Shown: in pieces, positions 4,094-45,904 of the stretch | Numbering within the stretch: the stretch's first letter is position 1 | How the letters are laid out: the number at the start of each line of letters is the position of its first letter | NCBI GenBank assembly: GCA_015233115.1 | Contig: JADFYJ010000006.1 | Coordinates: forward strand, 595-64,594 | Origin: Candidatus Omnitrophota bacterium | GTDB lineage: Bacteria > Omnitrophota > Gorgyraeia > Zapsychrales > Zapsychraceae | Length of the DNA: 64,000 bases | Direction: 5' to 3' | Program-made: the position numbers and the translations under genes | The notes under the pieces: generated by a model | Seen by the model: only the letters and a program-made list of their open reading frames with translations | Told to the model about the DNA's origin: nothing | Database searches by the model: none

Positions 4094-4233
4094 TTTGGCA
4101 ATTCACCAAGAAGGATGATATACTTTAGCTAAGAGATGTGAAAGGTAAACCACCCGTAAGGATGGGACACAAAGCTATAGGGCCCTGTACCAGAGGTAGA
4201 GGGTAGCCAGTTGCCGCGAGAAAAAAATTTGTG

Positions 4234-4453: not shown

Positions 4454-4840
4454 ATGAGAAGAGGACAAAAAGGTTTTACGCTGGTGGAAATCATGATCGT
4501 TGTGGCGATTATCGCGTTATTAGCCGCGATCGCGATTCCTAACTTGCTAAGAGCCAAAGTTTCGGCTAACGAAGCTTTAGCGCAAAGCACATTAAAAACA
4601 CTATCAACGTCTATTGAAACTTATACAACAGCGAATAACGGTCTTTATCCGAACGCTGAGAACTTGTTAACGGGTGCTACACCGCCATATTTGAATACGG
4701 CTTATTGCGGTCTAAGTCTTAGCGGTTACACCTATGCTTGTACTTTGGCTACCGGGGGTTACACGATTGTGGCGACTAATAATTCAACCAGCACAGGTAC
4801 CAGAACATTCACAGTTACAACAGGAGGCATTTTACGCTAA
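4454..4840 (+). CDS. pilA: Type IV major pilin (PilA-like), class III signal peptide
   Basis: N-terminus MRRGQKGFTLVEIMIVVAIIALLAAIAIP has the prepilin G|FTLVE cleavage/methylation motif. A C-terminal Cys pair forms a D-region-like loop (CGLSLSGYTYAC). The caaggagg RBS precedes the start. Confidence 0.9.
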   Translation: MRRGQKGFTLVEIMIVVAIIALLAAIAIPNLLRAKVSANEALAQSTLKTLSTSIETYTTANNGLYPNAENLLTGATPPYLNTAYCGLSLSGYTYACTLATGGYTIVATNNSTSTGTRTFTVTTGGILR

Positions 4841-4865
4841 TTGTGGTGATATAAAGTGAATTGGC

Positions 4866-4893
4866 GGGGGCTTAGCAATAAGCCCCTTTTTTT
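4866..4893 (+). terminator. Rho-independent terminator/attenuator after the major pilin gene
   Basis: Stem gggggctta/taagccccc followed by ttttttt. Confidence 0.75.
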
Positions 4894-4997
4894 ATAAATG
4901 AGCTCATCACTTAGAGAGCGAAGCGAACTAAGTGATTTGAGCGAATTTAGTTCCGTGCGAAGCTAGGAACTTCAACGCGGTCAAAATTGGAGGGGGG

Positions 4998-5465
4998 ATG
5001 GGGAAGAAGATAAATAATTCAGGCATGAGTTTAGTTGAGCTCATGGTGGCGTGCGGCATATTGGCTGTCTTCTTTTTGGGAGTAATAATTGTTTTTATTA
5101 AATGTATCCAGATGACTGAATTAGCCCGCAATTCTTCTCTCGCGATGTCGCTCGCGAAAACCCGCATGGAACAAATCCGCTTGCACAATAATATTCCTTT
5201 TAATCAAGTTCTCCTGACATATGATGGAATTATTTTTCCTACACCAGGCCTTAACGGTAAAGGAGTCAGCTATGTTGACGCGGATATCACGAATCCTAAA
5301 TTATTGACTGTAACGGTTGAGGTGTCCTGGAGAGAAAAAAGCGGACTTATTGTGGGAGAAGACAAAAATTTAGACGGTCAATTTGAAGTGGGGGAAGATA
5401 CTCTGGTGGTTAATACCCGCTTAGATTCCCCGGCTGAAATTACAGGGATAATTTATGATTACTAA
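4998..5465 (+). CDS. Minor pilin / pseudopilin with prepilin-type N-terminal motif
   Basis: MGKKINNSG|MSLVELMVACGILAVFF has a Gly-1/Glu+5 prepilin signature followed by a hydrophobic helix. Confidence 0.75.
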   Translation: MGKKINNSGMSLVELMVACGILAVFFLGVIIVFIKCIQMTELARNSSLAMSLAKTRMEQIRLHNNIPFNQVLLTYDGIIFPTPGLNGKGVSYVDADITNPKLLTVTVEVSWREKSGLIVGEDKNLDGQFEVGEDTLVVNTRLDSPAEITGIIYDY

Positions 5466-6171
5466 TGAACGAAAAAATAATAACCGCGCGGGATATAGCC
5501 TTCTTGAGCTGATGGTTGTCATCGCGATTTTAATGATGTTAATGAGCGCGTTATTTCGTCTGTTAGGCCGGGGGAGTGAAGTGTGGACTTTGTCGGATAC
5601 GAAAATTGATTTACAAAGTAATTTGCGATCATTAAGGGACCGGATCGCGGGTGAATTAGAGCAAAGCGGATCAGATGGAACGAACATGAAAGTATTTATT
5701 TCGCAGGGCACGGGAGTCAATAGTTCTGATGTCCTCAAGTTTTCTATTCCTGTTGTGTGTCAGAGCGGGGGAAGTATTATGAATTCTACGGCGGATGTAG
5801 CGTATTGGGGCGCGCCTTTAACGTATGGATGTACAGATTATACTTGCATGGATCATGATAACAATTGCGCGACTATTGATTACACTTGGCTGGTATACCA
5901 GTTAAAGTTAAATACAGATTTAACCCAATTGAATAAAAATAATCCGGTCCAGCAGTATCAACTTGTCCGTCAAGTTTTGGGCGCGGACGGAACAACTGTG
6001 GTGCGCGAAGACGTTATGGGCGCGAATGTGCCTGGTTTTAAAGCGTCCTTTGATACGGCCTCAAACGCGTTGATCACGCTGACTTTGACGGCTTCGGGTA
6101 TTTCGAATTTCCGTCGGACGGTATTGCCAATGACCACGACCTTTGAAGTGAACCTGCGGAATAAGAGGTGA
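5455..6171 (+). CDS. Minor pilin / pseudopilin (PilW/FimT-like) with prepilin N-terminal motif
   Basis: NNRAG|YSLLELMVVIAILMMLMSALF prepilin motif. The start overlaps the upstream gene by 11 nt. Confidence 0.75.
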   Translation: MITNERKNNNRAGYSLLELMVVIAILMMLMSALFRLLGRGSEVWTLSDTKIDLQSNLRSLRDRIAGELEQSGSDGTNMKVFISQGTGVNSSDVLKFSIPVVCQSGGSIMNSTADVAYWGAPLTYGCTDYTCMDHDNNCATIDYTWLVYQLKLNTDLTQLNKNNPVQQYQLVRQVLGADGTTVVREDVMGANVPGFKASFDTASNALITLTLTASGISNFRRTVLPMTTTFEVNLRNKR

Positions 6172-8221: not shown

Positions 8222-8318
8222 CAAAACGCGTGACAGTGTAACAATGTGACAATGAAAAAGCGGTTGGTTGGAAAGGCGCATTACTTTTTTAAATAATAAA
8301 TTAAATTTGAATTAAATA

Positions 8319-8385: not shown

Positions 8386-9441
8386 ATGAACAAATTTTTA
8401 GATACTTATTTTAAAACAATTAAACGGTTTTTACCGGAACGATCTGCGGAAACGTCGGTGGGAATTGACATTGGCACAGGCGAGTGCAAACTCATAGAAC
8501 TGATTAAAAAACAGGACAGTTATGAGGTTGTGAATTGGTCAATTCGTCCGGTCGATAATAATGACATCGCGAGCGCGCTTAAGGCCATGTTGTCGAAATT
8601 AGGCCCTGGAAAACGTTCCATTTACACCTCAGTTTCCGGGCGGGGAACTTTGATCCGTTATATTGAAATGCCGCACATGTCTGTCGAGGACATGAAGAAT
8701 TCTTTCGGATTGGAAGCGGATAAATATTTTCCTTTTGCGCAGAATGAAATTTATTCTGACTGTTCCATCATAGATAATGAGAACAAGAAAAAACTGATGT
8801 ATGTGATGGCTGCGGTTGCCAAAAAAGATATCATTGATCTGCGGATAAAACTTTTAAGTGACTTGGGTTATAAGGTGGATTTTATCGGGCTCAATCCGGT
8901 GGCTTTGGCCAATGTCATGAATACTCTCGGTGCGGGTGAAGAGGCCAAGTCTGAAAAAGCTGTGGCGGTTTTGGACATGGGAGGAACCATCAGCAATTTA
9001 TCCATTTTTATAAAAGACAAACCGTGGTTTACGCGCGATATTTTTGTGGGCGGTCGTGATTTTACAAAACGCATCAGCAATATTTTGGGGGTGGACATGA
9101 ATCAGGCGGAGATATTAAAAACTTCGCCCAGCGATCAGCTGGAAAAAATGCTCGACGCGTGCGACTCTGCGGTGACGAATATTGTGCAGGAAATAAAATT
9201 GTCGTTTGATTATTTTTCAACAGAACGGAATTTTGAAGTTGGAAAATTGCTGTTAACGGGAGGCGCTTCAAAGCTGGAAGGTCTCTCGGCGCGGGTAGAA
9301 AAACATTTGGAAATCCCGGTAGTCTATTGGAATCCATTAAGTTTGGTGAAAATGTCTTCGGATATTTCTCCGGAAGAAATAAAAAAAGAATCCATGAAAT
9401 TAGGCGTGGCTCTCGGGCTCGCATTATATAATTATGATTGA
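8386..9441 (+). CDS. pilM: Type IV pilus assembly protein PilM (actin-like ATPase fold)
   Basis: VGIDIGTGECKLIEL phosphate-1-like motif. The gene is 351 aa and is followed by pilNOPQ. Confidence 0.85.
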   Translation: MNKFLDTYFKTIKRFLPERSAETSVGIDIGTGECKLIELIKKQDSYEVVNWSIRPVDNNDIASALKAMLSKLGPGKRSIYTSVSGRGTLIRYIEMPHMSVEDMKNSFGLEADKYFPFAQNEIYSDCSIIDNENKKKLMYVMAAVAKKDIIDLRIKLLSDLGYKVDFIGLNPVALANVMNTLGAGEEAKSEKAVAVLDMGGTISNLSIFIKDKPWFTRDIFVGGRDFTKRISNILGVDMNQAEILKTSPSDQLEKMLDACDSAVTNIVQEIKLSFDYFSTERNFEVGKLLLTGGASKLEGLSARVEKHLEIPVVYWNPLSLVKMSSDISPEEIKKESMKLGVALGLALYNYD

Positions 9442-10018
9442 AATTAACCTCACACCACCGGAAGCGCGGAAAAAACGTACAGCTGGCGGCTTTATGAAGG
9501 GCCTGAGTGTGCCATTGGAAGTGATCATTGGCTTAGGCGGTGGTTTATTAATGTTACTGTTGTGTATTTATGTGGTACTGGTTTTCGCGAACCTGGGCAA
9601 AGCCGCTGAGCTGCGGTCATTGAATAAACAGTGGGAACAATTACAGCCGGAGAAAAAAGAAATTGATGCGGTATTAAGTGATTTGCGCTCTTTGCAGTCC
9701 ATTAAGAAAGATGTACAAAAAATTTGCAACGCGAACCGTATCCGTTGGTCTCGGAAGTTGAATATCATCACAGATGTTATTCCCAAAGGCGTCTGGCTGA
9801 TCAGAATTGATGCGGGCGACGCCAGTCTTTTTATTAAAGGCCGGGCGCTTTCAAAGCAGGGAGAGGAATTAAGGAATATTCATGCCTTTGTCGCGAATTT
9901 GAAAAACAATCCGGATTTTATGAGTGAGCTTAAAGATGTGGAATTGGGAAATATTCAATCTGTTAAAGTGAGCGGCGTTGATGTATCAGAGTTTTCGATC
10001 AAGGTGGTCTTAAAATGA
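9434..10018 (+). CDS. pilN: Type IV pilus assembly protein PilN
   Basis: Single N-proximal TM segment followed by a coiled-coil. Its position between pilM and pilO is typical, and its start overlaps pilM. Confidence 0.75.
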   Translation: MIEINLTPPEARKKRTAGGFMKGLSVPLEVIIGLGGGLLMLLLCIYVVLVFANLGKAAELRSLNKQWEQLQPEKKEIDAVLSDLRSLQSIKKDVQKICNANRIRWSRKLNIITDVIPKGVWLIRIDAGDASLFIKGRALSKQGEELRNIHAFVANLKNNPDFMSELKDVELGNIQSVKVSGVDVSEFSIKVVLK

Positions 10019-10657: not shown

Positions 10658-10715
10658 GGAAAAAACGACTGATCAAAAACGTAGGGGCGCCCTGGTTTTT
10701 AAAAAAAACACAAAC

Positions 10716-14135: not shown

Positions 14136-14137
14136 AA

Positions 14138-14172
14138 GTGACAGAGTAACCGAGTAACCGAGTAACAGAGTG
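14138..14172. repeat. Family-A tandem octamer block (GTGACAGA GTAACCGA GTAACCGA GTAACAGA)
   Basis: Directly follows the rng stop. Its inverted partner lies at 14327..14366. Confidence 0.8.
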
Positions 14173-14231
14173 AAAAGAAAAGCGATTGATGGGAAAAAAA
14201 TCTACTTTGTTTACTCTGTACTTTTTTCCTC

Positions 14232-14260: not shown

Positions 14261-14326
14261 TGGCAAACGATAAATTACGGCAAGACTAATTAGGTTCAGA
14301 GATTTTCCTATATTTTTTGTTTTTTT

Positions 14327-14366
14327 CTCTGTTACTTTGTTACTCGGTTACTTTGTCACTTAACAA
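14327..14366. repeat. Family-A block, reverse orientation (CTCTGTTACTTTGTTACTCGGTTACTTTGTCAC)
   Basis: Reverse complement of the block at 14138. It lies in the rplU 5' leader. Confidence 0.8.
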
Positions 14367-14696: not shown

Positions 14697-14767
14697 AATT
14701 TATTTTACCGGTTGATGGTTGATAGTTTTTGATTTTTGGAAGAAGCGATAGCTTCCTAAATCTTAAA

Positions 14768-14810: not shown

Positions 14811-14822
14811 ATTGAATCTTTA

Positions 14823-14866
14823 AAAGTAACAGAGTAACCGAGTAACAAAGTAACAGAGCAACAGAA
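14823..14866. repeat. Family-A block (forward)
   Basis: aaagtaacagagtaaccgagtaacaaagtaacagagcaacag, located after the rplU terminator. Confidence 0.8.
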
Positions 14867-14937
14867 TAAAAAACTAATATTAAGGCTGTTACTTTGATTT
14901 TGTTTTTTACAAGTATTGTTTTTTTGTAATCTTTTTT

Positions 14938-14978
14938 TGTGCTCTGTTACTCGGTCACTTTGTTACTTTGTTACTTTA
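14938..14978. repeat. Family-A block (reverse)
   Basis: gtgctctgttactcggtcactttgttactttgttacttt, located before obg. Confidence 0.8.
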
Positions 14979-15006: not shown

Positions 15007-16005
15007 ATGTTGTTCGTCGACGAAACAATTATAAAAATTAAGGCCGGTGACGGCGGGCAGGGGTGCGAGAGTTTTTATCGCGATTTGTCGCGCGCGCCTA
15101 TGGCGGATGGCGGTGACGGCGGCAAAGGCGGGGATATTATTATTGAGGCTTCACGCTCGCATCACACGCTTTTGGATTTTAAATATCAACAGAATTATAA
15201 AGCGTCCAAAGGCGGGAATGCCAGCAGTAATAACAAAACCGGGCGTAAGGGCGAAGACCGTATACTTAAAGTTCCGGTTGGAACTATTATCCGTGATGCG
15301 GAAACCGGGCTGGTGATTAAAGATATGACCGAAGACGGCCAGCAGATTATTATCGCGAAAGGCGGGCATGGTGGCATAGGGAATCAATATAAGCATACGC
15401 CTAAACCTGCCGTGCCGGGTGAAGAACATCGAATTCTGCTCGAACTTAAAGTCATGGCAGATGTGGGATTAGTTGGTTTTCCGAATGTGGGGAAATCGAC
15501 TATTATTTCCGCGATTTCGAAAGTCAGATCTCCGGTAGCCAATTATCCTTTTACCACGAAACAGCCGATTTTAGGCATTGTGCAGGATGAATTGGATGAG
15601 AAATTGGATTTTGTGGTGGCTGATCTTCCCGGTATTATTGAAGGCGCGCATGACGGACGGGGTTTAGGCGACAGGTTTTTACGCCACGCGGAACGCACCA
15701 AGATTTTGGTCCATGTGCTGGATATGTCAGGGTCTGAAGGTCGTGACCCTCTAGAGGATTTTGAAAAATTAAATCATGAATTGAATTCATACGGAGAAAC
15801 ATTGCCGTTTAAAAGCCAGATTGTGGTAGCTAACAAGATGGACTTACCTGAAGCAAAAAATCATTTAAAACGTTTTAAAAAGCATTATAATGAAGCCATT
15901 ATTGCTGTTTCAGCAAAGGATAAAAAGGGATTAGACCAGCTAGTGAAAGAGATCCGTGCCGTCCTATGTCAAGAACGTTCCTCAGAAAAATCAAAAGAGT
16001 CATAG
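15007..16005 (+). CDS. obg: GTPase Obg (ObgE/CgtA), short form without C-terminal TGS/OCT domain
   Basis: Obg-fold Gly-rich N-domain (GDGGQGC, GGDGGKGGD) and GTPase motifs GFPNVGKST, DLPG and NKMD. Confidence 0.9.
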   Translation: MLFVDETIIKIKAGDGGQGCESFYRDLSRAPMADGGDGGKGGDIIIEASRSHHTLLDFKYQQNYKASKGGNASSNNKTGRKGEDRILKVPVGTIIRDAETGLVIKDMTEDGQQIIIAKGGHGGIGNQYKHTPKPAVPGEEHRILLELKVMADVGLVGFPNVGKSTIISAISKVRSPVANYPFTTKQPILGIVQDELDEKLDFVVADLPGIIEGAHDGRGLGDRFLRHAERTKILVHVLDMSGSEGRDPLEDFEKLNHELNSYGETLPFKSQIVVANKMDLPEAKNHLKRFKKHYNEAIIAVSAKDKKGLDQLVKEIRAVLCQERSSEKSKES

Positions 16006-16751
16006 TTAAAGTCGGCTCAGGCTTAATCGCCAATGAGCAATTTAAGCCAAGTAATACCCGCCTGCGCCGTTTGGTGGAACAGATATGTTCTGCGCAAAAA
16101 CGTGGCTATGAAGTTGTGTTAGTCTCTTCCGGCGCCATAGCATTGGGTATGGGCGAGATGCAATGTAAAAAGCGTCCGTCTGAATTATCCCAGCTACAAG
16201 CTTATGCTTCCACAGGCCAAGCTATTCTCATGCGCAAATATAATGATTTATTCCATAAATATAATTCCAAATGTGGACAAATACTTTTAACTTGGGATGA
16301 TTTTCGTAATGATTCACGTCATAAAAATGTCCGCCAGACCATCAAGACCATGTTGTCGTGGGGTGTGGTGCCGATCATTAATGAAAATGATTCAGTTTCC
16401 AACGATGAAATTAAATTCGGAGACAACGATAAATTATCCGCTTTAGTGGCCAGCTGTGTAGACGCGGATTTATTGCTTATTTTGTCGGATGTGGACGGTT
16501 TATATGACATGCGCACTCCGGATAAAAAATTATATCGTGAAGTAAAAGAGATCACGCAGGAAATAGAAAGTGTGGCTGGCGGTTCAGTTAACAAAAATGT
16601 GTCCAAAGGCGGTATGAAATCTAAAATTGACGCGATCAAAATCGCGACCGCATCCAAGGTAGCCTGTGTGATCGCGCACGGCCAGACTGAAAATATTTTA
16701 AACCGCGTTTTAGATGGGGAAAATATCGGAACATATTTTTACGAAAAATAA
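15966..16751 (+). CDS. proB: Glutamate 5-kinase (no PUA domain)
   Basis: VKVGSGLIAN... amino-acid kinase fold motifs. The gene is 261 aa and overlaps the obg 3' end. Confidence 0.8.
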   Translation: MSRTFLRKIKRVIVKVGSGLIANEQFKPSNTRLRRLVEQICSAQKRGYEVVLVSSGAIALGMGEMQCKKRPSELSQLQAYASTGQAILMRKYNDLFHKYNSKCGQILLTWDDFRNDSRHKNVRQTIKTMLSWGVVPIINENDSVSNDEIKFGDNDKLSALVASCVDADLLLILSDVDGLYDMRTPDKKLYREVKEITQEIESVAGGSVNKNVSKGGMKSKIDAIKIATASKVACVIAHGQTENILNRVLDGENIGTYFYEK

Positions 16752-16756
16752 AACGT

Positions 16757-16782
16757 CGTAGGGGCGATCTCCTGATCGCCCG
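16757..16782. repeat. Family-D 26-nt palindromic element (cgtaggggcgatctcctgatcgcccg)
   Basis: It is itself a hairpin (GGGCGATC tcct GATCGCCC). A T-run lies 9 nt downstream, so it may terminate proB transcription. Confidence 0.8.
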
Positions 16783-16827
16783 CAACAATCGTTTTTAAAT
16801 AAAAATCAAAAAGCAATAATTTTGTCA

Positions 16828-16853
16828 CGGGCGATCAGGAGATCGCCCCTACG
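16828..16853. repeat. Family-D element, exact reverse complement of 16757..16782
   Basis: cgggcgatcaggagatcgcccctacg. Confidence 0.85.
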
Positions 16854-16878
16854 AACAGTGTAAATGTAGGAACATAAT

Positions 16879-18129
16879 ATGTCTAATAACATCATCAAAA
16901 TGGCGCAGAAAGCTAAGCAGGCTTCCTTAATTTTGGCGACGGTCAGCTCGTCTGAAAAAAATAAGGCGCTCAAATTAATGGCCAAGGCTTTGCTGGCTAA
17001 ATCCGCGTATTTGATTTCTGAAAATAAAAAAGATTTGAATGCCGCAAAAAAAGCGGATTATGCCCAGGCTTTAATTGACCGTTTAGTTTTGAATGATAAA
17101 CGGATTCATGAAATGGCTGAGTGTTTGATTGATACCGCGAATTTACCTGATTTAATTGGCGAGACTATGGCGGTTTACAAACGTCCGAATGGGCTGGTGA
17201 TTAAAAAAGTCCGCTGTCCGATCGGCGTTGTCGGCATTATCTATGAATCGCGTCCGAATGTGACCAGTGACTGCATTGGGTTGTGTTTGAAATCCGGCAA
17301 CAGTGTTATTCTCAAAGGCGGGAAAGAGGCGGTTAATTCTAATAATGCGATTTTTAAGGTTCTTAAAGATGTTTTAAAAATGACTAAAGTTCCGGCGGAA
17401 AGCATTCAGATGATTGCCTCCACTGACCGTGACTCCATGCTGAAGATGCTGGGCTTAACGGATTATGTTGATTTAATTGTTCCGCGGGGCGGGGAAGCCT
17501 TGATCCGTTTCGTTGGCGAGAATTCGCGCATTCCGGTCATTAAACATTATAAAGGCGTTTGCCACACGTATGTGAGTCATAAAGCCAATTTAAAAATGGC
17601 GGAAGATATTTGTTTTAACGCGAAAGTCCAGCGTCCGGGCGTGTGTAATGCCATGGAAACCATGCTGGTCCATAAACAAGCGGCGAAGAAATTTTTACCG
17701 GTCATGATTGAGCGTTTTCAAAAAGCGGGGGTTGAAATCCGCGGCGATGTTAAGACCAGAGCGATTGTCAAAGGCATTAAAGCCGCGCAAGAAGAAGATT
17801 GGCCGACGGAATATCTGGATCTCATTTTAGCCGTGAAAGTGGTGGATTCTTTGAAAGAAGCCATTGATCACATCAATACTTATGGGTCGCGTCATTCAGA
17901 CACGATCGTTACGGAAAGCAAGACTGAAGCGGAGGAATTTTTCCGTTCAGTAGATTCCGCGTGCCTGTATCAGAACGCGTCTACGCGTTTTACTGACGGC
18001 TATCAATTCGGTTTCGGCGCGGAAGTCGGGATCAGCACAGATAAGATCCATGTCCGAGGTCCTATGGGGATTGAAGGGCTGACGTCCTACAAATATACGG
18101 TGTACGGGAAAGGTCAGGTCCGTTCGTGA
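16879..18129 (+). CDS. proA: Gamma-glutamyl phosphate reductase
   Basis: Aldehyde dehydrogenase-family fold. It is 416 aa and adjacent to proB. The stop is TGA. Confidence 0.85.
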   Translation: MSNNIIKMAQKAKQASLILATVSSSEKNKALKLMAKALLAKSAYLISENKKDLNAAKKADYAQALIDRLVLNDKRIHEMAECLIDTANLPDLIGETMAVYKRPNGLVIKKVRCPIGVVGIIYESRPNVTSDCIGLCLKSGNSVILKGGKEAVNSNNAIFKVLKDVLKMTKVPAESIQMIASTDRDSMLKMLGLTDYVDLIVPRGGEALIRFVGENSRIPVIKHYKGVCHTYVSHKANLKMAEDICFNAKVQRPGVCNAMETMLVHKQAAKKFLPVMIERFQKAGVEIRGDVKTRAIVKGIKAAQEEDWPTEYLDLILAVKVVDSLKEAIDHINTYGSRHSDTIVTESKTEAEEFFRSVDSACLYQNASTRFTDGYQFGFGAEVGISTDKIHVRGPMGIEGLTSYKYTVYGKGQVRS

Positions 18130-18701
18130 ACAAGATCGGCATATTAGGCGGCACTTTTAATCCTGTTCACGTCGGGCATTTGGCTGTGGCGGATTACGCG
18201 ATTGAAAAGCTGGGATTAAATAAAGTCATTTTTGTCCCTTCCGCTCTGCCGCCGCATAAATCCGCTAAAGGCGTGATTGAGGCTCATCACCGTTATGAAA
18301 TGCTCAAGATCGCGGCTGGAGAAAATCCGAAATTTGAAGTCTGTGATTTTGAGATCAAACAAGGCGGAAAATCCTACAGTGTTGACACAGTTAAATATCT
18401 GATTAGCCAATACCCGGCTAAAACAAAATTTTATTTTATTATCGGTGAAGATAATTACGCGGGGTTGGCCAAATGGAGAAATATCGACGAGCTTATGGCG
18501 CTCACCGAATTTGTGGTGGTGAGCCGGCCAGAATCCGCGCCTTGCCGGAGTGACGGAAAAGCGCGTTTTTTAAAAATGCCGGGCTTGGAGGTTTCGTCCA
18601 CATATATCAGAAAAAACATTGCGCAACGGACCAGTATTCGGTATCTTATACCTGCGGAAGTTTTGCAATATATTAAGGCGCATAAACTATATTTGTCGTA
18701 G
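18126..18701 (+). CDS. nadD: Nicotinate-nucleotide adenylyltransferase
   Basis: GILGGTFNPVHVGH (HxGH) nucleotidyltransferase motif. A GTG start overlaps the proA stop. Confidence 0.85.
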   Translation: MNKIGILGGTFNPVHVGHLAVADYAIEKLGLNKVIFVPSALPPHKSAKGVIEAHHRYEMLKIAAGENPKFEVCDFEIKQGGKSYSVDTVKYLISQYPAKTKFYFIIGEDNYAGLAKWRNIDELMALTEFVVVSRPESAPCRSDGKARFLKMPGLEVSSTYIRKNIAQRTSIRYLIPAEVLQYIKAHKLYLS

Positions 18702-18795
18702 AGTGATTTCAAGTCGTTGTAGAAAAGTATCGTTTTGGTTGTTTTTAAAAATACCATTATTGAATGAAAAGTCATTAATTTAAAAACGATTGATG

Positions 18796-18822
18796 CGGGC
18801 GATCGGGAGATCGCCCCTACGA
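18796..18822. repeat. Family-D element (reverse orientation)
   Basis: gcgggcgatcgggagatcgcccctacg, located after nadD. Confidence 0.8.
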
Positions 18823-18861
18823 AAGAAACGATTATTTAAAGTGTAACAATATTTTGCTGTT

Positions 18862-18886
18862 GTAGGGGAGATCTCCTGATCTCCCG
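18862..18886. repeat. Family-D element (forward orientation, slightly diverged)
   Basis: gtaggggagatctcctgatctcccg. Confidence 0.75.
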
Positions 18887-18988
18887 TTACAAAATTATCG
18901 TTTTTTTGTTTTATTTTTTAATAAATTAAACCGTTTTTTTATTTCAAAATAAACATTTTTAAAATATGAAAAATCGAAAGGTCATCAT

Positions 18989-20401
18989 ATGAGTAAACCT
19001 GCTATTAAATTCGGAACAGATGGTTGGAGAGCGGTTATCGCTGATACATTTACTTTTGAAAATGTTGCCATCGTGGCGCAGGCTGTTAGTGAATGGGTGA
19101 AGGATGATTTGGAACCCATTCAAAAGAAAAAAACCGTATGCGTCGGATATGATACCCGTTTTTCCTCGGCCAAATTCGCGGAAATTGTCGCGACGGTGTT
19201 AGCTGCCAATGGTATTTCGGTATTTTTATCGTCGAGCGATTGTCCGACTCCGTCGTTAAGCTATGGCATTACGCGCAAAAAAAGCGTAGCCGGCATCATG
19301 ATTACCGCCAGCCATAATCCAGGCTCATTTAACGGGATAAAAATCCGCACGAAAGAAGGCGGCGTAGCCAGCAATGATGTTACCGCCCGTTTGGAGAAAT
19401 ATATCGGAAAGCATGATGTGAAAATCATGAAACTGGATGAAGCGAAAAAAGCCAAAAAAATTATTATGGTTGATCTGCAAATTGAGCACGCGGCTTTTAT
19501 CCGTAAATATTTGGACCAGTCAAAAATTAAGAACGCCAAATTCCGCGTGTTATGTGATGTGATGCACGGTAGCGGTCGTCATTTAATGAAAGAGGTTTTA
19601 AAAGACTCCAGCATTAAACTGACCATGATGCGCGATGAAATTAACCCGTGGTTTGACGGTGGAAAACCGGAGCCTATACCGGAATATTTGCAAAATACCA
19701 TGGCCCGCGCGAAAAAAGAAAAGTTTGATATCACGTTGGTTTTAGACGGCGATGCGGACCGCATCGGCGCTATCACTTCCGACGGTGAATTTGTGTCTCC
19801 GCAGAAAATATTAGGCCTTTTGGTTTTGCATTTGATATCTAATAAAGGAAAAAAAGGCGGAGTGGTCAAGACGACATGCGGAACGACTATGATTGATAAT
19901 ATTGCTTCCGGGTTGGGCATTGATTTGTTCGAAACGCCGGTGGGTTTTAAATATATTTCTGATCTGATGGTTTCGCGTAAAATCGTTGCCGGCGGTGAAG
20001 AGGCCGGAGGCATGGGCGTGCAGGGTTTTGTCCCGGAACGCGACGGAACTTTGGCTGGATTATTATTGGTTGAGATGATGGTGTTTTATAAAAAGAACTT
20101 GAAACAGATTGTGGCGGATATGGAAAAGAAATACGGCCGTTATTATTATGAACGCGCTGATCTATCGTTGGTCGGCCGCAAATTTGATATTGATAAAGCT
20201 AAGGCTTTAAAAACTTTGTTAGGTCAGAAAGTCGTGGAAGTGAAAGATTTTGACGGCGTAAAACTGGTTTGTGAGAATGAAGACTGGCTGATGCTCCGTC
20301 CGTCAGGAACTGAACCATTAGTCCGCGCTTATTCTGAAGCCAAATCATTGCAACGGGCAAAAGATTTGTTGAAAATCGGCGAAAAACTTTTAACAGCGTA
20401 A
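18989..20401 (+). CDS. Phosphoglucomutase/phosphomannomutase family phosphohexomutase
   Basis: Active-site TASHNPGSFNGIK motif and metal-binding DGDADR. The gene is 470 aa. Confidence 0.85.
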   Translation: MSKPAIKFGTDGWRAVIADTFTFENVAIVAQAVSEWVKDDLEPIQKKKTVCVGYDTRFSSAKFAEIVATVLAANGISVFLSSSDCPTPSLSYGITRKKSVAGIMITASHNPGSFNGIKIRTKEGGVASNDVTARLEKYIGKHDVKIMKLDEAKKAKKIIMVDLQIEHAAFIRKYLDQSKIKNAKFRVLCDVMHGSGRHLMKEVLKDSSIKLTMMRDEINPWFDGGKPEPIPEYLQNTMARAKKEKFDITLVLDGDADRIGAITSDGEFVSPQKILGLLVLHLISNKGKKGGVVKTTCGTTMIDNIASGLGIDLFETPVGFKYISDLMVSRKIVAGGEEAGGMGVQGFVPERDGTLAGLLLVEMMVFYKKNLKQIVADMEKKYGRYYYERADLSLVGRKFDIDKAKALKTLLGQKVVEVKDFDGVKLVCENEDWLMLRPSGTEPLVRAYSEAKSLQRAKDLLKIGEKLLTA

Positions 20402-21205: not shown

Positions 21206-24200
21206 ATGTCTCAATTTCGTTTTAGTTTTTGGACTAAATTGGTGTGTTCTTTTTTGTCAGTGATTTTTGCCTTGCAATGCGTTTATCCTTTGCAAGCCGC
21301 GAAAGCTGATGTCTTAACCCTTCCGGCTCCTGGATCAATGGTCAGCATGAGTCCGGCATTCGTTCCAACTTTATTGCGCGGCATGACTGTTCATCCTGAT
21401 AATCCGCTTCGCTTTGATTTTATTTTAGATAAGGGCGAAGCGGAGTCACAAGGTCACAAAGACACAAGGTCACAAAGGGAAATAAGAATTGAAACGGAAA
21501 AGTTGGTAAATTATTTCCTCGCGTCTATGACAGTTCCAGAAAAAGATTTATGGGTCAATCTTTCCCCGAACGAACCAAACCGGATTGTTTCCAAAGATTT
21601 AGGCAAAACTGAAATGGGCCGGGATTTGCTGGCTCAAGATTATATCCTAAAACAATTAACGGCTTCTTTAATGCAGCCGGATGGAGAAGCAGGCAGGGAA
21701 TTGTGGTCCAGAATTTATGAACGGGCTAAAAAAGAATTAAACACGACAGATATCCCTTTAGACACTTTTAACAAAGTCTGGATCCTGCCCGAAAGCGCGA
21801 CCATTTACGAACACAACAATACCGTCTATATCACAGACGCGAAATTGAAGGTTATGACAGATAGTGATTATAATACTAGTTTTAAACAAACTGTCATTCC
21901 CGCGAAAGCGGGAATCCAATTAACTTCTTTAATTAAAAAAATTATCATCCCCGAAATCGAAAAAGAAGTGAACACCGGCAAAAATTTTGCCCAGCTTCGC
22001 CAGATTTATTATTCACTCATTCTCGCCAAATGGTACAAAGACGTAGTCCGAAACAGTCTGCTTGAGAAAGTGTATATTGGAAAAAATAAAGTCGACGGCC
22101 TTGATTTAAACCCAAACCAAACACTTTCTCCGGCCAATATTTACAAACAATACATGTCCGCCTTCAAACAAGGCGTTTACAACAAAATTAAAGAAGAATA
22201 CGACCCCCAAACTCAGCAAATCATAGCCCGAAAATATTTTTCCGGCGGGTTTCAAGACACGGCCATGACCATTAAACAAGCCGACGCAGCGCAGATTACT
22301 CAGGCGCAAGAAGGCGAACAAAGTAGTGTGGCCGTCACATTAGACAACATTTCTGTAAGTCAAGAACCAGAAATAACTGAAAAAAATTTAAATGATTCTG
22401 AACGGATTATTTATAATAAAATTCAATTTCCTGTTTCTCCGGCACTTATCAGAGAAATTAAGAAGAGTAAGAAATTAGCCGAGACATTTTGTCTAATAAC
22501 TGGTATGGAGAAAAATGATTCGTTGCTGGCACAATTTTTGTTGTTTCATTTGTTTATCCGTATGTCAAAAGCAGAAGAGGGAGCTGTTGCAAATGAATTT
22601 TATTCATCGGCAGGTTTATTAAATCCATCTTATCAAGAAAGGCTGCCGGACGAATTAAGAAAAGATCCTCTTAAAGTGTTAAATGATTTTTTAACTGAAA
22701 CTGGGAGGGAAGAACTGCGTGCTAAGAATTTTGAAAATTGGGATGACTTCAAAGATTATTTGCTGAAAACTGATCAAGAGCCGTTATGGGAAATTTTTCA
22801 AGAATGGGTTGCTGCGCTGCCATATCGGAAATTTTTTGAGTTAGCGCATATTGAAAAAGCAGCGCAGTTTTTAAGTACCCGTCCGGATATGGTCCCTGAA
22901 GGTTTCCGGGAATCATTTGAAGTATTTCAAGACCGTGGAAAACCTGCGCCGATCGAAGAAATCGTGTCTGTTGTTGAAGATAATTATGGTCCTTTGGAAA
23001 ATTTATGTGAGAAGCGGCAGGATATCAAGGAAGGAGATAATCCTTATTTAAAACGGCTTAATGTGGGTACTGTCGCCGATACATTTTTGGTGACTTTAAA
23101 GAATGGTCAGCAGGAAGCTTGGAAAATCGTGGCTCCAAGCAAAGAAGCAAAGATTCGTCAAGGTCTTGAAACGCTGCGGGAAGTTATGGGTGAACTCGAA
23201 AAAAACAAAGTTTTTTTTGCCGGCAATGAAACTATCCGGTTATCCCCTGTAAGATTTTTTAAGGAATTTGAAAAAGCAGTGCTCAGAGAACTGGATATGA
23301 ATACTGAAGCAAAGCAGGCACGCGATATGATCCCTCATTTTCCAAAAGGGTTTGCTAAACCTGAAATTAGAGAAAGTAAAAAGCAGATCCTTCGCATGGG
23401 TTTTATCAATGGAACTAAAATAACTTTAGTTACGGACACTGAAATTAGAAAACGCCTAGCGAAAAAGATATTGCCTTTAATTGGTTTACAGGCGTTAGGA
23501 GATGAAATTTTTCATGCGGATCCCCACCCGGGAAATATTTTTTATATTGAAGAAACCGGTGAGATTGTTCTTTTTGATTTTGGTCAGGTGGGGTATTTGA
23601 CGAAGTCCGTGCGAAGGGATTTGGTAAATTTGGCGGTTCAAATTTTACAGCATAGAGAGCAGCGCGGTTTACATCAGGTCATGTACCATGCTATAGGGAA
23701 AATTTTACAATCCAAAATTGCTGCGAAAATGGCAAGATGGGGTTTATTTAATTATTATTGGTATCAAGAGCAAAAAAATCAGAAGAGACCCCAATCTAGC
23801 CCGGATTCAATCCGAAAAACAGAAAATCGACAGAAAGATCACGAATCTGAAATATCATTTGAATCCACCTTGGACTTTGATGATGTGCTTAAAAAAATGG
23901 TTGAAACGACACCCCTTAATATTGATGAAATTTTGGATTTTCTTGAGTTAAAAGGGATACAGAATACAGGATATAACCGTGACAGTTTACACGCAAAAAT
24001 ATCTGAAATCCTCACATCAAAAAGTATTCAAGGGTGGAAAGAGCAACAGCCTTATATTATGGTTGACCGCCTTGTGTATGAAGCAGAAGCTCTTGGGTTG
24101 ATTATTCAGACGCCATATTCTTCCATCATATCGCATATAATGACGTTTGCTCATAAATATGCAGATATGGACGACAATATTGAAGCGGATGAGATCGGAT

Positions 24201-25441
24201 TTAAAACCGAAGTCTCTTCAATTCTGAGATTCCGAAGGGAAGGCGAAAGCATTTTTCCTGTTGTACACCGCATCTTTTTAGCCGCAGACCGGTTTGGATA
24301 TCCGATATTGTCATCTGCCTCAATGCTGATCAAATCCTTACTTTTAGCCGAAGGCGTCCAACGGACGCTGAAACAAAATTTGGAAGGCAGGAATGATTCA
24401 AACGATTCAGCCATGACCATCAAACACGCCGACGCCGCGCAGATAACCCGTGCACAAGTAGGCGAACAAAGTCGAGGCAAAGTTACATTGTCTGATCATG
24501 CGATGCAACAAATTATTTTACCGGATTACGCTGGCAATTTAGACCCATTAGCCTTAGGTGAAAAGCCTAGGAAAGTGATTGAATTAATGCGGAAGGGGCT
24601 CAATGTTCCGAAATTTTTTGTCATAAAATCTAATGGGACGGGAAAACTGGAAATTACAGATGAATTAAGGCGGGTTTTTGATTCTTTTAAAAAACCGGTT
24701 ATTGTCCGCAGTGCGCATCCTATGGAAGGCGGCGAACATCCCTTTCCTGGTATATTTAACAGTTACTCAGCAGTCAGTTATTTGGCTTTCGAAGATATTC
24801 CTGATGGTATACGGCCTGATGCCGAGGGCAAATGGGATAAAGATCCATTAAGCGTTGATTGGGCATATGAAGATATGGTGGAAACAGCATCACCAGATTG
24901 GAATGATAAATTAGATAAATATTTGAAAGCCAATGCTATTAAAGATTTTGATCCAAAAGCAATGGATGCGGTTTTGATGGAACAAGTTGACGTGGAAGTG
25001 TTTGGTATGTTTTTTACAGAAAGCCAAATCCATCCTAATAAAATTGAGATTCGTTATATTATCCCAGACACAAATGATGGCGGAATTATATTGTTTGATA
25101 AAACAACTCAATCACTCGAAGAAAATTCTTTACCACAACGTATCCAGGAAGTTCTTACGGAATTTGGAAAAACTGCGCAAAAGATTCATGACATATATGG
25201 TTTTCAACAAATTGAGTTAGCGTCTTCTAAAATTGATAAAAAGGTTTATGTTTTTCAATCCAGAAATTTTCCTATTGGCGATCCAAACAACGTGGCTCGT
25301 TATCCTGAATATCAAACCATCATGACGCCTAATGCGGTACTTGGTTATGGTGATTATAATCTGCCGGTTATAGTTTTAGATGGGTTAGATAGTGTCACAA
25401 AATATAAGGAAGATCCAAAATATCGAGCCTTGAGTGAATAA
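21206..25441 (+). CDS. Giant multidomain protein: signal peptide/anchor + unknown N-domain + UbiB/ABC1-type atypical kinase domain + PPDK_N/PEP-utilising-enzyme ATP-grasp-like domain; internal repeats
   Basis: N-terminus MSQFRFSFWTKLVCSFLSVIFALQCVYPLQAAKA is signal-like. The ABC1/UbiB hallmarks LSTRPDMVP, AWKIVAP (Lys), HADPHPGNIFY and DFG are present. At the C-terminus, ...NVPKFFVIKSNG... and KPVIVRSAHPMEGGEHPFPGIFNSYSAV resemble PPDK_N VAVRSSAxxEDxxxxSFAGQ. The motif SAMTIK[QH]ADAAQIT appears twice. Confidence 0.6.
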   Translation: MSQFRFSFWTKLVCSFLSVIFALQCVYPLQAAKADVLTLPAPGSMVSMSPAFVPTLLRGMTVHPDNPLRFDFILDKGEAESQGHKDTRSQREIRIETEKLVNYFLASMTVPEKDLWVNLSPNEPNRIVSKDLGKTEMGRDLLAQDYILKQLTASLMQPDGEAGRELWSRIYERAKKELNTTDIPLDTFNKVWILPESATIYEHNNTVYITDAKLKVMTDSDYNTSFKQTVIPAKAGIQLTSLIKKIIIPEIEKEVNTGKNFAQLRQIYYSLILAKWYKDVVRNSLLEKVYIGKNKVDGLDLNPNQTLSPANIYKQYMSAFKQGVYNKIKEEYDPQTQQIIARKYFSGGFQDTAMTIKQADAAQITQAQEGEQSSVAVTLDNISVSQEPEITEKNLNDSERIIYNKIQFPVSPALIREIKKSKKLAETFCLITGMEKNDSLLAQFLLFHLFIRMSKAEEGAVANEFYSSAGLLNPSYQERLPDELRKDPLKVLNDFLTETGREELRAKNFENWDDFKDYLLKTDQEPLWEIFQEWVAALPYRKFFELAHIEKAAQFLSTRPDMVPEGFRESFEVFQDRGKPAPIEEIVSVVEDNYGPLENLCEKRQDIKEGDNPYLKRLNVGTVADTFLVTLKNGQQEAWKIVAPSKEAKIRQGLETLREVMGELEKNKVFFAGNETIRLSPVRFFKEFEKAVLRELDMNTEAKQARDMIPHFPKGFAKPEIRESKKQILRMGFINGTKITLVTDTEIRKRLAKKILPLIGLQALGDEIFHADPHPGNIFYIEETGEIVLFDFGQVGYLTKSVRRDLVNLAVQILQHREQRGLHQVMYHAIGKILQSKIAAKMARWGLFNYYWYQEQKNQKRPQSSPDSIRKTENRQKDHESEISFESTLDFDDVLKKMVETTPLNIDEILDFLELKGIQNTGYNRDSLHAKISEILTSKSIQGWKEQQPYIMVDRLVYEAEALGLIIQTPYSSIISHIMTFAHKYADMDDNIEADEIGFKTEVSSILRFRREGESIFPVVHRIFLAADRFGYPILSSASMLIKSLLLAEGVQRTLKQNLEGRNDSNDSAMTIKHADAAQITRAQVGEQSRGKVTLSDHAMQQIILPDYAGNLDPLALGEKPRKVIELMRKGLNVPKFFVIKSNGTGKLEITDELRRVFDSFKKPVIVRSAHPMEGGEHPFPGIFNSYSAVSYLAFEDIPDGIRPDAEGKWDKDPLSVDWAYEDMVETASPDWNDKLDKYLKANAIKDFDPKAMDAVLMEQVDVEVFGMFFTESQIHPNKIEIRYIIPDTNDGGIILFDKTTQSLEENSLPQRIQEVLTEFGKTAQKIHDIYGFQQIELASSKIDKKVYVFQSRNFPIGDPNNVARYPEYQTIMTPNAVLGYGDYNLPVIVLDGLDSVTKYKEDPKYRALSE

Positions 25442-28400
25442 TTGGTCCTCGCGAGAAGAAGTGGTGAAATCGAAAAGGAAAGACGACTAAGTGATTTGAA
25501 TGAAAATCTAATAGATCAAGCCCGGGAAAAATATAGAGAAGAATTGAGGAGATTTATTAGTAAACATCCAGAATATATTCTTGTCATTAAAGACGCGGAG
25601 GATTTAGCTTATTATCCTGCTGGTGATGATATTTGGACTACCAAAAATTATTCTTTTGTAAATGAACTCTCTGCCAAAGCCAAGGTCGTTATTAAAGGAA
25701 AGTACCAAAATGCAATTCGCCATGAAGATTGGGATAACATTGAGATGGGCGGGATTGTCATTGAACCGAAACAGGATGATCGGGTTATGAAAGCATTTTT
25801 TAGTACAAAGCCGGACTCATTTAAAGAAGAACCCACTTGGGTTATAGGTAAAACAGATAATATAAAAAAATTAGGTGTCAAAAGAATTCACACGGGGGAT
25901 TTTCTACATGTTTTATCAAATACAGATGGTTGTTTTATTTGGTATGGGGAAGAGGAGCATCGGGATTCAGCCATGATCATTAAGCAAGCCGATAAAGCTA
26001 TGGTTAAAAAGGGATCAGTTAATGAACAACAAAAGCTGATTACAGTGGAATTGGCTGACTATTCAATGAATTCGCTTTCTGACATTGAGGGTGTTGGCAG
26101 CATTTCATCTGCGATTAAAGATAAATATTTAAGTTCTGCGATGGAGCAGCAATTCATTATGTTAAAGAAGCGGCTTCCGAATCTGGACGTAACAAGTTTA
26201 TTATTATTTTACGGGAGAATTCTTGGCTTCCTCAATACCAGAACGCCCAAAAATCAGGAACGGTTTGATTTTTTACCAATTCCGGAATTTATTAAGCAAG
26301 AGGTTTTTGCCGCAAAAAATATTAAGGATTATAAGGAAGGGATGTACGTAGTAGAAGAAACTTTGAAGCGTTACGAAAAACAAGTATTTTTCGATAGCCC
26401 TTACTGGCTTGATAAAGTTATGAAAAACGTAAAAATAAATGGTGGCGCATCCGGTGAAATTATATTAAGGGATTTACTCGTGCTTATGAGGAGAGGTGTT
26501 TTTGCCTATTTATCCCAGTATCTCTACAGAATAGGCGGTGCCTCATCCATTACAGAATTGTTACAGGAACGTCACTACACGAAAGTATCTATGCCTCACA
26601 TTGGTGGTCAAGAACAGTTTCTTCCTGTAAGTGAGTTAGTTCCAATACAAGATATTTTAGAAAAATATCACTTGGATTCTGAAGGAAAACCTATTGGTAG
26701 CGTAAAAGACAAGGCCATGTCAAGTAAGGTTGCCGCTTTTAACCCTTCCTTTATATTAAAAATGCGTCTGGCTGTTTCTATGCTGCCGAATGTTCAAAAA
26801 GGTGAATATAGCCGGGAAGCGTTTATAAATCATTTGGATTTGCCTGATATTTATGAGCAGGCATTTGCCATTGCGAATCCGGGTAAAATTTTACAGGAAG
26901 AGGACCGTAAAAGATTACAGCAGTTGTCTTTGCATGTAACGCAGGTATTAACGGCTTGGCTGGATCAGCGTACGAAAATTCCGGATGATTCAATGGTGTG
27001 GTTGTTAAGCATTATTTTTCATGATGTCGGCAAAGTGGTTGCTTTGCAAAATCATGAAGAGTTAAGTGATAAATTTTTAACGGAAAACCTGGTTATTGAA
27101 AAATTTGTTGCGAGCGGATTGATTAACACGAAGCAGGCGGATCTGATTAAATTGCTGGTGCGGTATCATTTGCCTTTGGGCCTTATGTTTATGGGAGAAA
27201 TGAACTTTAATGATTGGAAAGATTTTTTCCGCGATGCCCGATTAAGAACTTTAGTGAAACAAGGGGTGCTTTTAAAAGACATTTTACAGCAAATTAAACG
27301 CATCACATTTTTTGATCAAACCGCGTATTCTCCAGCGGCCCCTTTCAAAACAGTTTTACAATTTCAGGATGAAATTATTGAGCAGTTAAGCGAGATAGAT
27401 ATTGACGCGAATGATATCGATGCAAAATTGGATGTTATGAGCGCTGATTTTATTAAGTCAAGGATCAAGGGTTTGGTGAGTTGGGGGGATATTAATTTAG
27501 ATCAGCCTAAGGTTTATTATGATGAATTGATGCGGAATGTGATATATCGTTTTAAGACCATTGAACCTGGTTTTGATTCTACAAGAATGTATCATGTATT
27601 ATCGCGAATAAATTTACGTCAATTTTGTATTATTGCCGCGTCTTTAGCTTGGGTCGCAGAACAGCCTAATAGTTTTGAAGAGTTTGTTCCTGCCGCGGAA
27701 AATTTTCGTAACATATCTGCAGGCGCGCAAATAAATGTCAATTTTGTAAAATTGCTTTCTGTTATAGTGTCGCAGGTTAAAACTGTGAATTTTTCTCATG
27801 TGGTGATCGAAGGTTCAGACGGCCAGGCTCCCAGCCGGGTTGTTGCGGATGATCCTTACCAGTTTGCAAAGTTTGTTTATGAATTAAATAATATTTTGAG
27901 TAAAGAACAGTCCGTGGACCAGCAGGGCAATAACTTTTTCTTTTTGGATGAACACGGACAGCGGCTGAGTGATATAACCAGAATGGTTATTGACGAGCAG
28001 GCAGCAACATTAAAAATTATCATTGATAGCGGGACGACGGCTGTGAAAAATGAACAAAAACAGGAGCCGGTTGTTGCTCAACCCGAGATCGAACAGCATC
28101 CGGGGGAGTTAATTCCGTTCAATCGCGCGAAGATTAATCCACTACTCACGACCATGCAAACCGTTAAGTTAAGCTTTTTGCCGGCAGGGCAAAGCATCCT
28201 GTTCAATGTGAGCGGCACGATAACACATTTTGTGGATTTTAGTGTTGGAGATCCTGACGATAAAAGGTTTATTATTACGATTCTACCGGAGGATGAACCG
28301 GAAGAAAAAGCATACATTTTAACAGTAGGAAATGTTGATACTGATGTCGAAGGAACAGCCGCTCAATTAAAAATAGTTGATTCCGCAGTACTTTCTGACG

Positions 28401-28630
28401 TTGGTGGTATTGATATGACCAAGGTTGGGTTTAAGCGGGAAGCAAGCCCTGCATCCCACGTGGTGCAGGGTAAACATGAAATTATTTTTAATTTTGACCC
28501 GGCCATGCTGGAACAATTTCAATCTGGAAATTTCAAAAGTTTTCAGGCTGTTATCACAAATGTGACGCCTTTGCCAAGCGTCCTGCCGCTTTTGGGTTTA
28601 TCGCTGGATAAAAAGAATAAGGCTGGTTAG
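25442..28630 (+). CDS. Second large ORF in the same frame (separated from the previous ORF by a single TAA): HD-domain phosphohydrolase-containing multidomain protein
   Basis: It continues the frame of 21206..25441 immediately after the TAA. The HD signature is ...WLLSIIFHDVGKVV... with downstream His/Asp. A third copy of the SAMIIKQADKA repeat is present. The true start is unclear; the track shows a TTG directly after the stop. Confidence 0.5.
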   Translation: MVLARRSGEIEKERRLSDLNENLIDQAREKYREELRRFISKHPEYILVIKDAEDLAYYPAGDDIWTTKNYSFVNELSAKAKVVIKGKYQNAIRHEDWDNIEMGGIVIEPKQDDRVMKAFFSTKPDSFKEEPTWVIGKTDNIKKLGVKRIHTGDFLHVLSNTDGCFIWYGEEEHRDSAMIIKQADKAMVKKGSVNEQQKLITVELADYSMNSLSDIEGVGSISSAIKDKYLSSAMEQQFIMLKKRLPNLDVTSLLLFYGRILGFLNTRTPKNQERFDFLPIPEFIKQEVFAAKNIKDYKEGMYVVEETLKRYEKQVFFDSPYWLDKVMKNVKINGGASGEIILRDLLVLMRRGVFAYLSQYLYRIGGASSITELLQERHYTKVSMPHIGGQEQFLPVSELVPIQDILEKYHLDSEGKPIGSVKDKAMSSKVAAFNPSFILKMRLAVSMLPNVQKGEYSREAFINHLDLPDIYEQAFAIANPGKILQEEDRKRLQQLSLHVTQVLTAWLDQRTKIPDDSMVWLLSIIFHDVGKVVALQNHEELSDKFLTENLVIEKFVASGLINTKQADLIKLLVRYHLPLGLMFMGEMNFNDWKDFFRDARLRTLVKQGVLLKDILQQIKRITFFDQTAYSPAAPFKTVLQFQDEIIEQLSEIDIDANDIDAKLDVMSADFIKSRIKGLVSWGDINLDQPKVYYDELMRNVIYRFKTIEPGFDSTRMYHVLSRINLRQFCIIAASLAWVAEQPNSFEEFVPAAENFRNISAGAQINVNFVKLLSVIVSQVKTVNFSHVVIEGSDGQAPSRVVADDPYQFAKFVYELNNILSKEQSVDQQGNNFFFLDEHGQRLSDITRMVIDEQAATLKIIIDSGTTAVKNEQKQEPVVAQPEIEQHPGELIPFNRAKINPLLTTMQTVKLSFLPAGQSILFNVSGTITHFVDFSVGDPDDKRFIITILPEDEPEEKAYILTVGNVDTDVEGTAAQLKIVDSAVLSDVGGIDMTKVGFKREASPASHVVQGKHEIIFNFDPAMLEQFQSGNFKSFQAVITNVTPLPSVLPLLGLSLDKKNKAG

Positions 28631-35028: not shown

Positions 35029-35030
35029 AT

Positions 35031-35068
35031 TTGATGGTTGTTGGTTGATGGTTGTTAGTTTTGGTTAA
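35031..35068. repeat. Family-C block (forward)
   Basis: ttgatggttgttggttgatggttgttagttttggttaa, located after the rplL stop. Confidence 0.75.
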
Positions 35069-45872: not shown

Positions 45873-45904
45873 TGACAGAGTAACCGAGTAACCGAGTAAC
45901 CGAG
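45872..45904. repeat. Family-A block (forward)
   Basis: agtgacagagtaaccgagtaaccgagtaaccgag. It starts at the fusA stop codon. Confidence 0.8.

Follow-up and report, generated by a model that had tools for sequence, protein, structure and literature searches.

Probable GTAG-tagged REP elements, including a REPIN-like dimer, in an operon of Candidatus Omnitrophica

The DNA analyzed here is a stretch of 64,000 nucleotides (64 kb, hereafter the window) whose ProA is 100% identical to MBF0478681.1 of Candidatus Omnitrophica. All genes of the window lie on the plus strand, the GC content is 42% and the GC skew is strongly positive. The genes near the elements described below are pilMNO, a secretin gene, rne, rplU, obg, proB, proA, nadD and pgm. 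The products of the last four contain AA_kinase, Aldedh, CTP_transf_like and PGM_PMM domains respectively, and so the names given to them in a first-pass annotation of the sequence were right. They are arranged as follows.

proB, 15966 to 16751, plus strand: truncated, 261 amino acids, AA_kinase domain only
proA, 16879-18129, plus strand: Aldedh domain; lies between the two repeat loci
nadD, 18126-18701, plus strand: CTP_transf_like domain; lies between the two repeat loci
pgm, 18989 to 20401, plus strand: phosphoglucomutase family, PGM_PMM domain; lies 3' of the second repeat locus

The start of pgm that is conserved with related species is probably the ATG near 19011.

The first-pass annotation had described a 26-nt GC-rich palindromic element, present as an exact inverted pair at 16757-16782 and 16828-16853, as a diverged pair at 18796-18822 and 18862-18886, and as a fragment at 10676-10688. 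We find all of these at those coordinates with the sequences reported. The cores of the first pair have no mismatches, those of the second pair have one and two, and the head of the element is present in the fragment, at 10681. Searching the window with the 24-mer core GTAGGGGCGATCTCCTGATCGCCC, allowing up to three mismatches, gave four matches, where dinucleotide-preserving shuffles lead to an expectation of 0.00. The head sequence GTAGGGGNGNNC was observed five times in the window against 0.11 expected, the fifth occurrence being that at 10681. When the 64 kb were searched generically for any perfect GC-rich hairpin preceded by GTAG, exactly the same four copies, U1 to U4, came up. The census of the window stands at four intact copies and two relics, all inside 8 kb. 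All are extragenic, being located in the proB-proA and nadD-pgm spacers and in that between pilO and the next gene. The units and their surroundings are these.

Relic, 10681 to 10710, plus strand: GTAGGGGCG joined to CCC, then GTTTTTAAA; head GTAGGGGCGCCC
E1, 16756 to 16854, no strand assigned: whole REPIN-like dimer with GTAG ends outward ('HH' sensu Di Nocera)
U1, 16758 to 16781, plus strand: no mismatches; GTAG tag, stem GGGCGATC/GATCGCCC, loop TCCT
E1 spacer, 16782 to 16828, no strand assigned: AT-rich, 47 nt; the overlapping tails of U1 and U2
U2, 16829 to 16852, minus strand: no mismatches; exact reverse complement of U1
U5 relic, 18716 to 18745, plus strand: GTTGTAG followed directly by the tail; left partner of U3
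U3, hairpin 18797 to 18820 with tail 18775-18796, minus strand: one mismatch, in the loop (TCCC)
Locus-2 linker, 18821 to 18861, no strand assigned: 41 nt between inward GTAG ends ('TT' junction)
U4, 18862 to 18927 including the tail, hairpin 18862-18885, plus strand: two mismatches; stem GGGAGATC/GATCTCCC

Each of the four intact copies is 24 nt long and contains two GATC sites. The stem is GC-rich and pairs perfectly over 8 bp, as the first-pass annotation had noted, and the loop has 4 nt. An unpaired GTAG lies directly 5' of the stem in all four, and GTAG is retained in both relics. The two mismatches of U4 constitute a compensatory exchange of C:G for A:T, by which the perfect 8-bp stem is kept. 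We rejected the idea that the elements are explained by GATC being avoided or enriched; GATC occurs in the window at 1.28 times the expected frequency.

The 26-nt palindrome is real, but it is only part of what is repeated. Behind each hairpin comes an AT-rich tail, which extends the similarity between units to 48-56 nt. With the tails included, U3 is 94% identical to U1 (16756-16803 compared with 18775-18822, over 48 nt), and U4 is 84% identical to U2 (16797-16852 compared with 18862-18917, over 56 nt). There are two types of tail. U1 and U3 share GCAACAATCGTTTTTAAAT, and U2 and U4 share GTGACAAAATTATYG running to TTTTT.

We have compared the window with four syntenic relatives, comprising L108 (ProA 87% identical) and L141, L142 and L143/144 (about 70%). 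These are other species, not strains. Gene order and orientation are the same in the window and in all four. The nadD-pgm gap is 287 nt in the window, and 15, 19, 55 and 18 nt in the relatives. The proB-proA gap is 127 nt behind a truncated proB, compared with −1 to 11 nt in three relatives, and the gap between pilO and the next gene is 98 nt, compared with 5 nt in L108 and 5 nt or an overlap in the relatives generally. No GTAG-tagged hairpin was found in the 14-21 kb searched in each of the four. Since the relatives have tight junctions with no such element, the elements of the window are insertions into an ancestrally tight operon. The first-pass annotation had proposed a check for insertion polymorphism, and the sites are empty in these four species. 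It had also held that the idea of a mobile family would fail if only two loci existed and relatives carried an uninterrupted, different spacer. Short uninterrupted spacers in relatives are, however, just what insertion predicts, so that this objection does not hold.

Other repeats occupy intergenic spacers of the window. A family distinct from the REP-like hairpins is built from an 8-nt unit, AGTAACMG / CKGTTACT, and forms inverted arrays with 45-180 nt enclosed between them (14137-14181 with 14316-14361, 14817-14877 with 14923-14977, 45871-45909 with 46086-46131, and 8230-8268). These arrays are found in the rne-rplU, rplU-obg and fusA-tuf spacers, and array-bearing spacers are much longer than those of L108 (252 compared with 71 nt, and 310 compared with 111 nt). 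Two more families, inverted arrays of short periodic units typified by GTATGTAG and by GGTTAATGG, lie in other intergenic spacers, at 2121-2169/2281-2325, 30345-30393/30567-30617 and 52504-52552/52605-52648, and also at 219-264/328-377, 14713-14744 and 35022-35062. A GC-rich unit of 50 nt, GGTAGGCCGTTCGCGGGAGCTCACGGCACTACTTCGGACATTTCGTCCTC, stands twice in tandem at 54509-54608, and L108 carries a close homologue of it between proB and proA (9403-9455). Its presence in both points to a conserved repeat or small RNA common to the two. The window further contains a c-di-GMP-I riboswitch at 4134-4218 (58.7 bits, gathering score 35), directly 3' of which are three genes (4454-6171) encoding N-terminal methylation (pilin-like) motifs. 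Between plsC and rpsA (21206-28630) there is a 1411-amino-acid gene with an ABC1 kinase-like domain and a 1062-amino-acid gene without a Pfam match, which have internal repeats in common (22262-22341 and 24410-24489); in three relatives plsC is followed directly by rpsA.

Locus 1, between proB and proA, is occupied by the dimer E1. U1 starts 6 nt past the proB stop codon and U2 ends 26 nt ahead of the proA start codon. E1 measures about 99 nt, its terminal inverted repeats taking up 33 nt each, and is predicted to fold into a perfect 27-bp hairpin with a folding energy of −62.9 kcal/mol as RNA and −39.3 kcal/mol as DNA (z about −13; −13.5 for the RNA). DNA homology to L108 ends at ...GAAAAATAAAA, just left of E1, and restarts at GAACAG, right after the ...CCCCTAC of E1. 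Because the homology breaks at these points, E1 can be taken as a discrete unit with its GTAG ends as boundaries.

The outline of E1, a unit of about 99 nt with long terminal inverted repeats, could be that of a classical MITE, the first-pass annotation having called the elements MITE-like. Such a MITE would descend by deletion from a DDE-type insertion sequence and move by cut-and-paste. But no target-site duplication is visible at the E1 boundaries set by comparison with L108, where the annotation had advised looking for one. Moreover the inverted repeats are self-complementary GTAG-tagged hairpins, and they match REPs that elsewhere flank genes for Y1 (HUH) transposases, not DDE transposases. 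A MITE is therefore a very improbable identity for the element.

The position of E1 coincides exactly with a deletion junction in proB. ProB of the window aligns to residues 1-261 of the 362-amino-acid ProB of L108 with 85% identity. The PUA domain is absent in the window and present in all four relatives (360-362 amino acids), and no PUA remnant was found elsewhere in the 64 kb. A single insertion or deletion event might have removed the domain. Both proA and pgm keep an intact ribosome-binding region.

Locus 2, between nadD and pgm, has the opposite arrangement, with GTAG ends inward and tails outward where those of locus 1 have GTAG ends outward. Outwardly it resembles a circular permutation of locus 1. 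However, U5 corresponds to U4 minus its 25-nt hairpin, with 27 of 30 positions identical, a score reached by none of 2978 random windows and none of 2000 shuffles. To the right of U4 the tail runs to about 18927, and the expected partner hairpin is absent. As read from its sequence, locus 2 is a small BIME-like cluster of two adjacent dimers of the locus-1 kind, both in the same, inverted orientation and each without its outer hairpin. This explains the locus, and we have rejected a true circular permutation. Further left, the last codon of nadD is a TAG within TCGTAG (18696-18701), which resembles the head of a REP. REP termini have been reported as a source of TAG stop codons for adjacent genes (PMC3733652).

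The relic at 10681 lies 3' of pilO, in the gap of 98 nt that precedes the next gene. It has lost the inner 12 nt of the hairpin, and its GTTTTTAAA is as in the tail of U1. It is a probable relic of a solo REP.

Inverted repeats of 48-56 nt with 84-94% identity now stand on either side of proA-nadD, and in principle might serve as a substrate for recombination that inverts or excises this 2-kb segment. Yet the four relatives have the same order and orientation of the genes without having the repeats, there is no recombinase gene close by, and the permuted look of locus 2 is accounted for by the two adjacent dimers with lost outer hairpins. We give recombination hardly any credence as an explanation.

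What kind of element is this? Di Nocera et al. 2013 (PMC3733652) define GTAG REPs by stems of 6-13 bp and loops of a few nucleotides. They describe dimers whose members are 20-100 bp apart and carry GTAG either on the outside ('HH') or on the inside ('TT'), the HH form being commoner, with spacers that tend to be conserved. REPs of this kind are units of 20-40 nt that usually lie closely downstream of a gene and occur in many copies throughout a genome. REPIN is the term of Bertels and Rainey (2011) for two inverted REPs with their spacer (PMC3116915 and PMC3337134). The window has a pair with GTAG outward across a 47-nt spacer and a pair with GTAG inward across a 41-nt linker. E1 forms the long hairpin of a REPIN, its boundaries lack a target-site duplication, and the corresponding sites in the four relatives are empty. 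Since GTAG with a short perfect hairpin, extragenic and in inverted pairs, is the published definition, we identify the elements as GTAG-tagged REPs. The unit would be a REPIN-like, non-autonomous inverted dimer spread by a REP-associated tyrosine transposase (RAYT), and we put the probability of this reading as a whole at roughly 0.8. The first-pass annotation had suggested REP- or BIME-like elements that might be targets of a RAYT, and this is supported by the GTAG hairpin dimers, by their absence in the relatives and by the association of the same 24-mer with RAYT genes elsewhere.

The anatomy of the elements is already known, and is textbook for REPs. A literature search found no papers naming both Omnitrophica and REPs, and a search for the literal REP sequence gave unrelated primer matches only. 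The elements had no match in Rfam at the gathering score. Sub-threshold matches were to eukaryotic miRNA-precursor models only; these reflect a generic long hairpin, and we rejected a known RNA family.

No RAYT was found in the window, where a profile HMM made from 78 RAYT homologues and run against the six-frame translation had no match at E ≤ 10. Elsewhere the exact 24-mer is linked to RAYT genes. On the metagenome contig L120 the 24-mer and close variants flank a gene of 154 amino acids. It scores 23.9 bits against Pfam Y1_Tnp, for which the cut-off is 23, and matches NCBIfam NF047646, 'REP-associated tyrosine transposase', with E = 1e-16, below the equivalog cut-off. The protein has the motifs HVH and YIENNP. 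L145/L146 carry a 155-amino-acid gene, P0122, the product of which is a homologue of the L120 RAYT with 65% identity. Upstream are five REP copies on the plus strand, four of them the exact 24-mer, and downstream are more than seven copies on the minus strand, exact or near-exact. This is the classical layout of a REPtron. L151 is a partial case of the exact 24-mer flanking a RAYT gene. More distant RAYTs of the same clade are flanked by the related REPs GTAGGGGCGCTCTCCGAGCGCCC and GTAGGGGCGATTTCCAATCGCCC. Since related RAYTs carry related REPs beginning with GTAGGGGCG, the REP sequence tracks the lineage of the transposase. These RAYT-linked copies differ from those of the window in having GC-rich hosts, which are not Omnitrophica, and GC-rich spacers. 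Of ten RAYT homologues looked up by cluster, one is named as Anaerolineales.

A metagenome scan for the hairpin with its AT-rich tail (GTAGGGGNGATCNNNNGATCNCCCGNNNCAA) gave no match, and viral contigs gave only two unrelated single-locus matches to a loose REP pattern. An IS200 TnpA sequence compared against the PDB returned IS200/IS605 transposase structures only, and no TnpA-REP.

The genomes in which this class of REP occurs are many and phylogenetically scattered. Among the matches listed in a genome scan with a degenerate pattern, Gordonibacter, Oscillospiraceae and Christensenellales have the exact 24-mer, while Phototrophicaceae and Anaerolineae are rich in loop variants. Among these same matches the class is often found in regular dimers with GTAG outward, including in Gordonibacter and Chloroflexota. 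The spacing differs between hosts. Phototrophicaceae OZ243934.1 (L002-L104) has GTAG-outward heterodimers with a fixed 21-nt spacer, in Gordonibacter (L021-L107) the dimer spacers are 55-56 or about 90 nt, and in Clostridia MAGs pairs with GTAG inward are about 15 nt apart. The hosts of the identical 24-mer include Omnitrophota at 42% GC, Gordonibacter (Actinomycetota) at about 65% GC and Clostridia (Bacillota); Chloroflexota have it as loop variants.

The GC content of the RAYT genes is lower than that of their surroundings, i.e. 0.42 compared with 0.57 for L120 319-783, 0.47 compared with 0.66 for L145 3001-3468, and 0.51 compared with 0.60 for L147 3001-3468. Genes lying 9-19 GC points below their hosts fit recent import. 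Together with the identical 24-nt core in such distant phyla, they hint that a REPtron lineage has spread horizontally. It is possible, and we propose it tentatively as something short of an even chance, that one REP-RAYT lineage moved horizontally among distant phyla and then built lineage-specific REPIN spacers. If true, this would go against the view of essentially vertical inheritance; REPIN-RAYT systems are described as mostly vertically inherited (10.1101/2022.05.22.493013). A 24-nt core with one RAYT clade in several phyla offers a concrete test of horizontal spread.

According to PMC8266576, RAYT/TnpA-REP binds the REP hairpin on single-stranded DNA and requires GTAG, cleaves and rejoins at a nearby dinucleotide, and does not take the reverse-complement strand as a substrate. 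By extension from that published work, the copies of the window would have been spread by an enzyme similar to P0121/P0122, encoded in another part of the genome or no longer present. This RAYT would recognize the hairpin and its 5' GTAG in single-stranded form, then cut and rejoin nearby, and the elements would spread without target-site duplication. Copies transcribed within the one-strand operon would then give very stable RNA hairpins, which could uncouple or stabilize the neighboring cistrons.

The state of the copies has two sides. The identity of the two E1 copies, their perfect hairpin and the compensatory change in U4 suggest recent copying or selection on structure. On the other hand, decay is still going on, as seen from the hairpins that have collapsed and the partner that is missing. 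With several copies decayed, the family may no longer be active in the Omnitrophica genome. Taken further, the elements might be dead relics of a horizontally acquired REPtron that has lost its RAYT, passively decaying with no mobility and no role for the host. That would fit the two of six units without a hairpin and the one missing partner, spacers diverged to 84-94% identity, the want of a RAYT in the 64 kb and the lack of copies in the nearest relative, L108, in the region compared. Loss of REPtrons by deletion in some strains is also described (PMC3733652). Against it stand the E1 copies, still identical and with a perfect 27-bp hairpin, and the compensatory stem change in one copy. We consider it somewhat unlikely, though a genuine possibility as a variant of the main reading, that the elements are only relics.

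Whatever their origin, the elements may plausibly have a role as hairpins in the mRNA. They are almost certainly transcribed, given their position inside an operon on a single strand, and a 27-bp RNA duplex as predicted for E1 could act as an exonuclease barrier or as the target of a double-strand RNase. It is conceivable that the host keeps the hairpins because they block 3' exonucleases, are cut by RNase III or terminate transcription in part, so that proB would be uncoupled from proA, and nadD from pgm. In favor of this, all the genes lie on one strand and the operon into which the elements were inserted was once tight, a very stable RNA hairpin is predicted, the insertions have spared the ribosome-binding regions of proA and pgm, and such roles for REPs are discussed in the literature (PMC3733652). 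Against this, the relatives do without the elements, and the copies lie in both orientations and are partly decayed. A consensus scan for terminators, defined as a GC-rich hairpin with a T-run within 0-2 nt, called none of the four intact copies, because the T-run begins 10-15 nt beyond the stem. The role as terminators suggested in the first-pass annotation is consequently not borne out for the intact copies, and we have rejected an intrinsic terminator; the only call was for the collapsed relic, at 10682. We judge maintenance by the host for regulation to be fairly unlikely.

On the reading as GTAG-tagged REPs, Omnitrophota would be added to the phyla with GTAG-tagged REPs or REPIN-like elements, and the locus would be a clean example of REPs splitting a tight operon, coinciding with loss of the PUA domain of ProB. 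Knowledge of the mechanism of REPs is not changed by the finding.

The elements share with the GTAG REP super-family the GTAG end, the perfect stem with a short loop, the position near the 3' end of the upstream gene, dimers facing in or out with spacers of 20-100 nt, and compensatory stem variants. Points of difference are the 4-nt loop, the stem GGGCGATC, the two GATC sites per copy, the strongly AT-rich spacers and the Omnitrophica host. The closest tested system is the REP of Stenotrophomonas maltophilia, which has an 8-bp perfect palindrome and a 3-nt loop (PMC8266576). As in REPIN-RAYT systems, E1 forms a long hairpin, the singletons and relics resemble decayed dimers, and the identical REP flanks RAYT genes elsewhere. 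They differ from those systems in having a REP core common to distant phyla; the 64 kb contain four intact copies and no RAYT. In the BIMEs of E. coli, clustered REPs alternate in orientation and are joined by defined linkers. Locus 2 is similar in its alternating REPs, in sharing its tail-side spacers with locus 1 and in having a separate kind of linker, of 41 nt, between the GTAG ends. But as a cluster it is tiny, with two intact copies and one relic, and with one partner missing, and the stems of the Omnitrophica elements are perfect where those of E. coli BIMEs are bulged.
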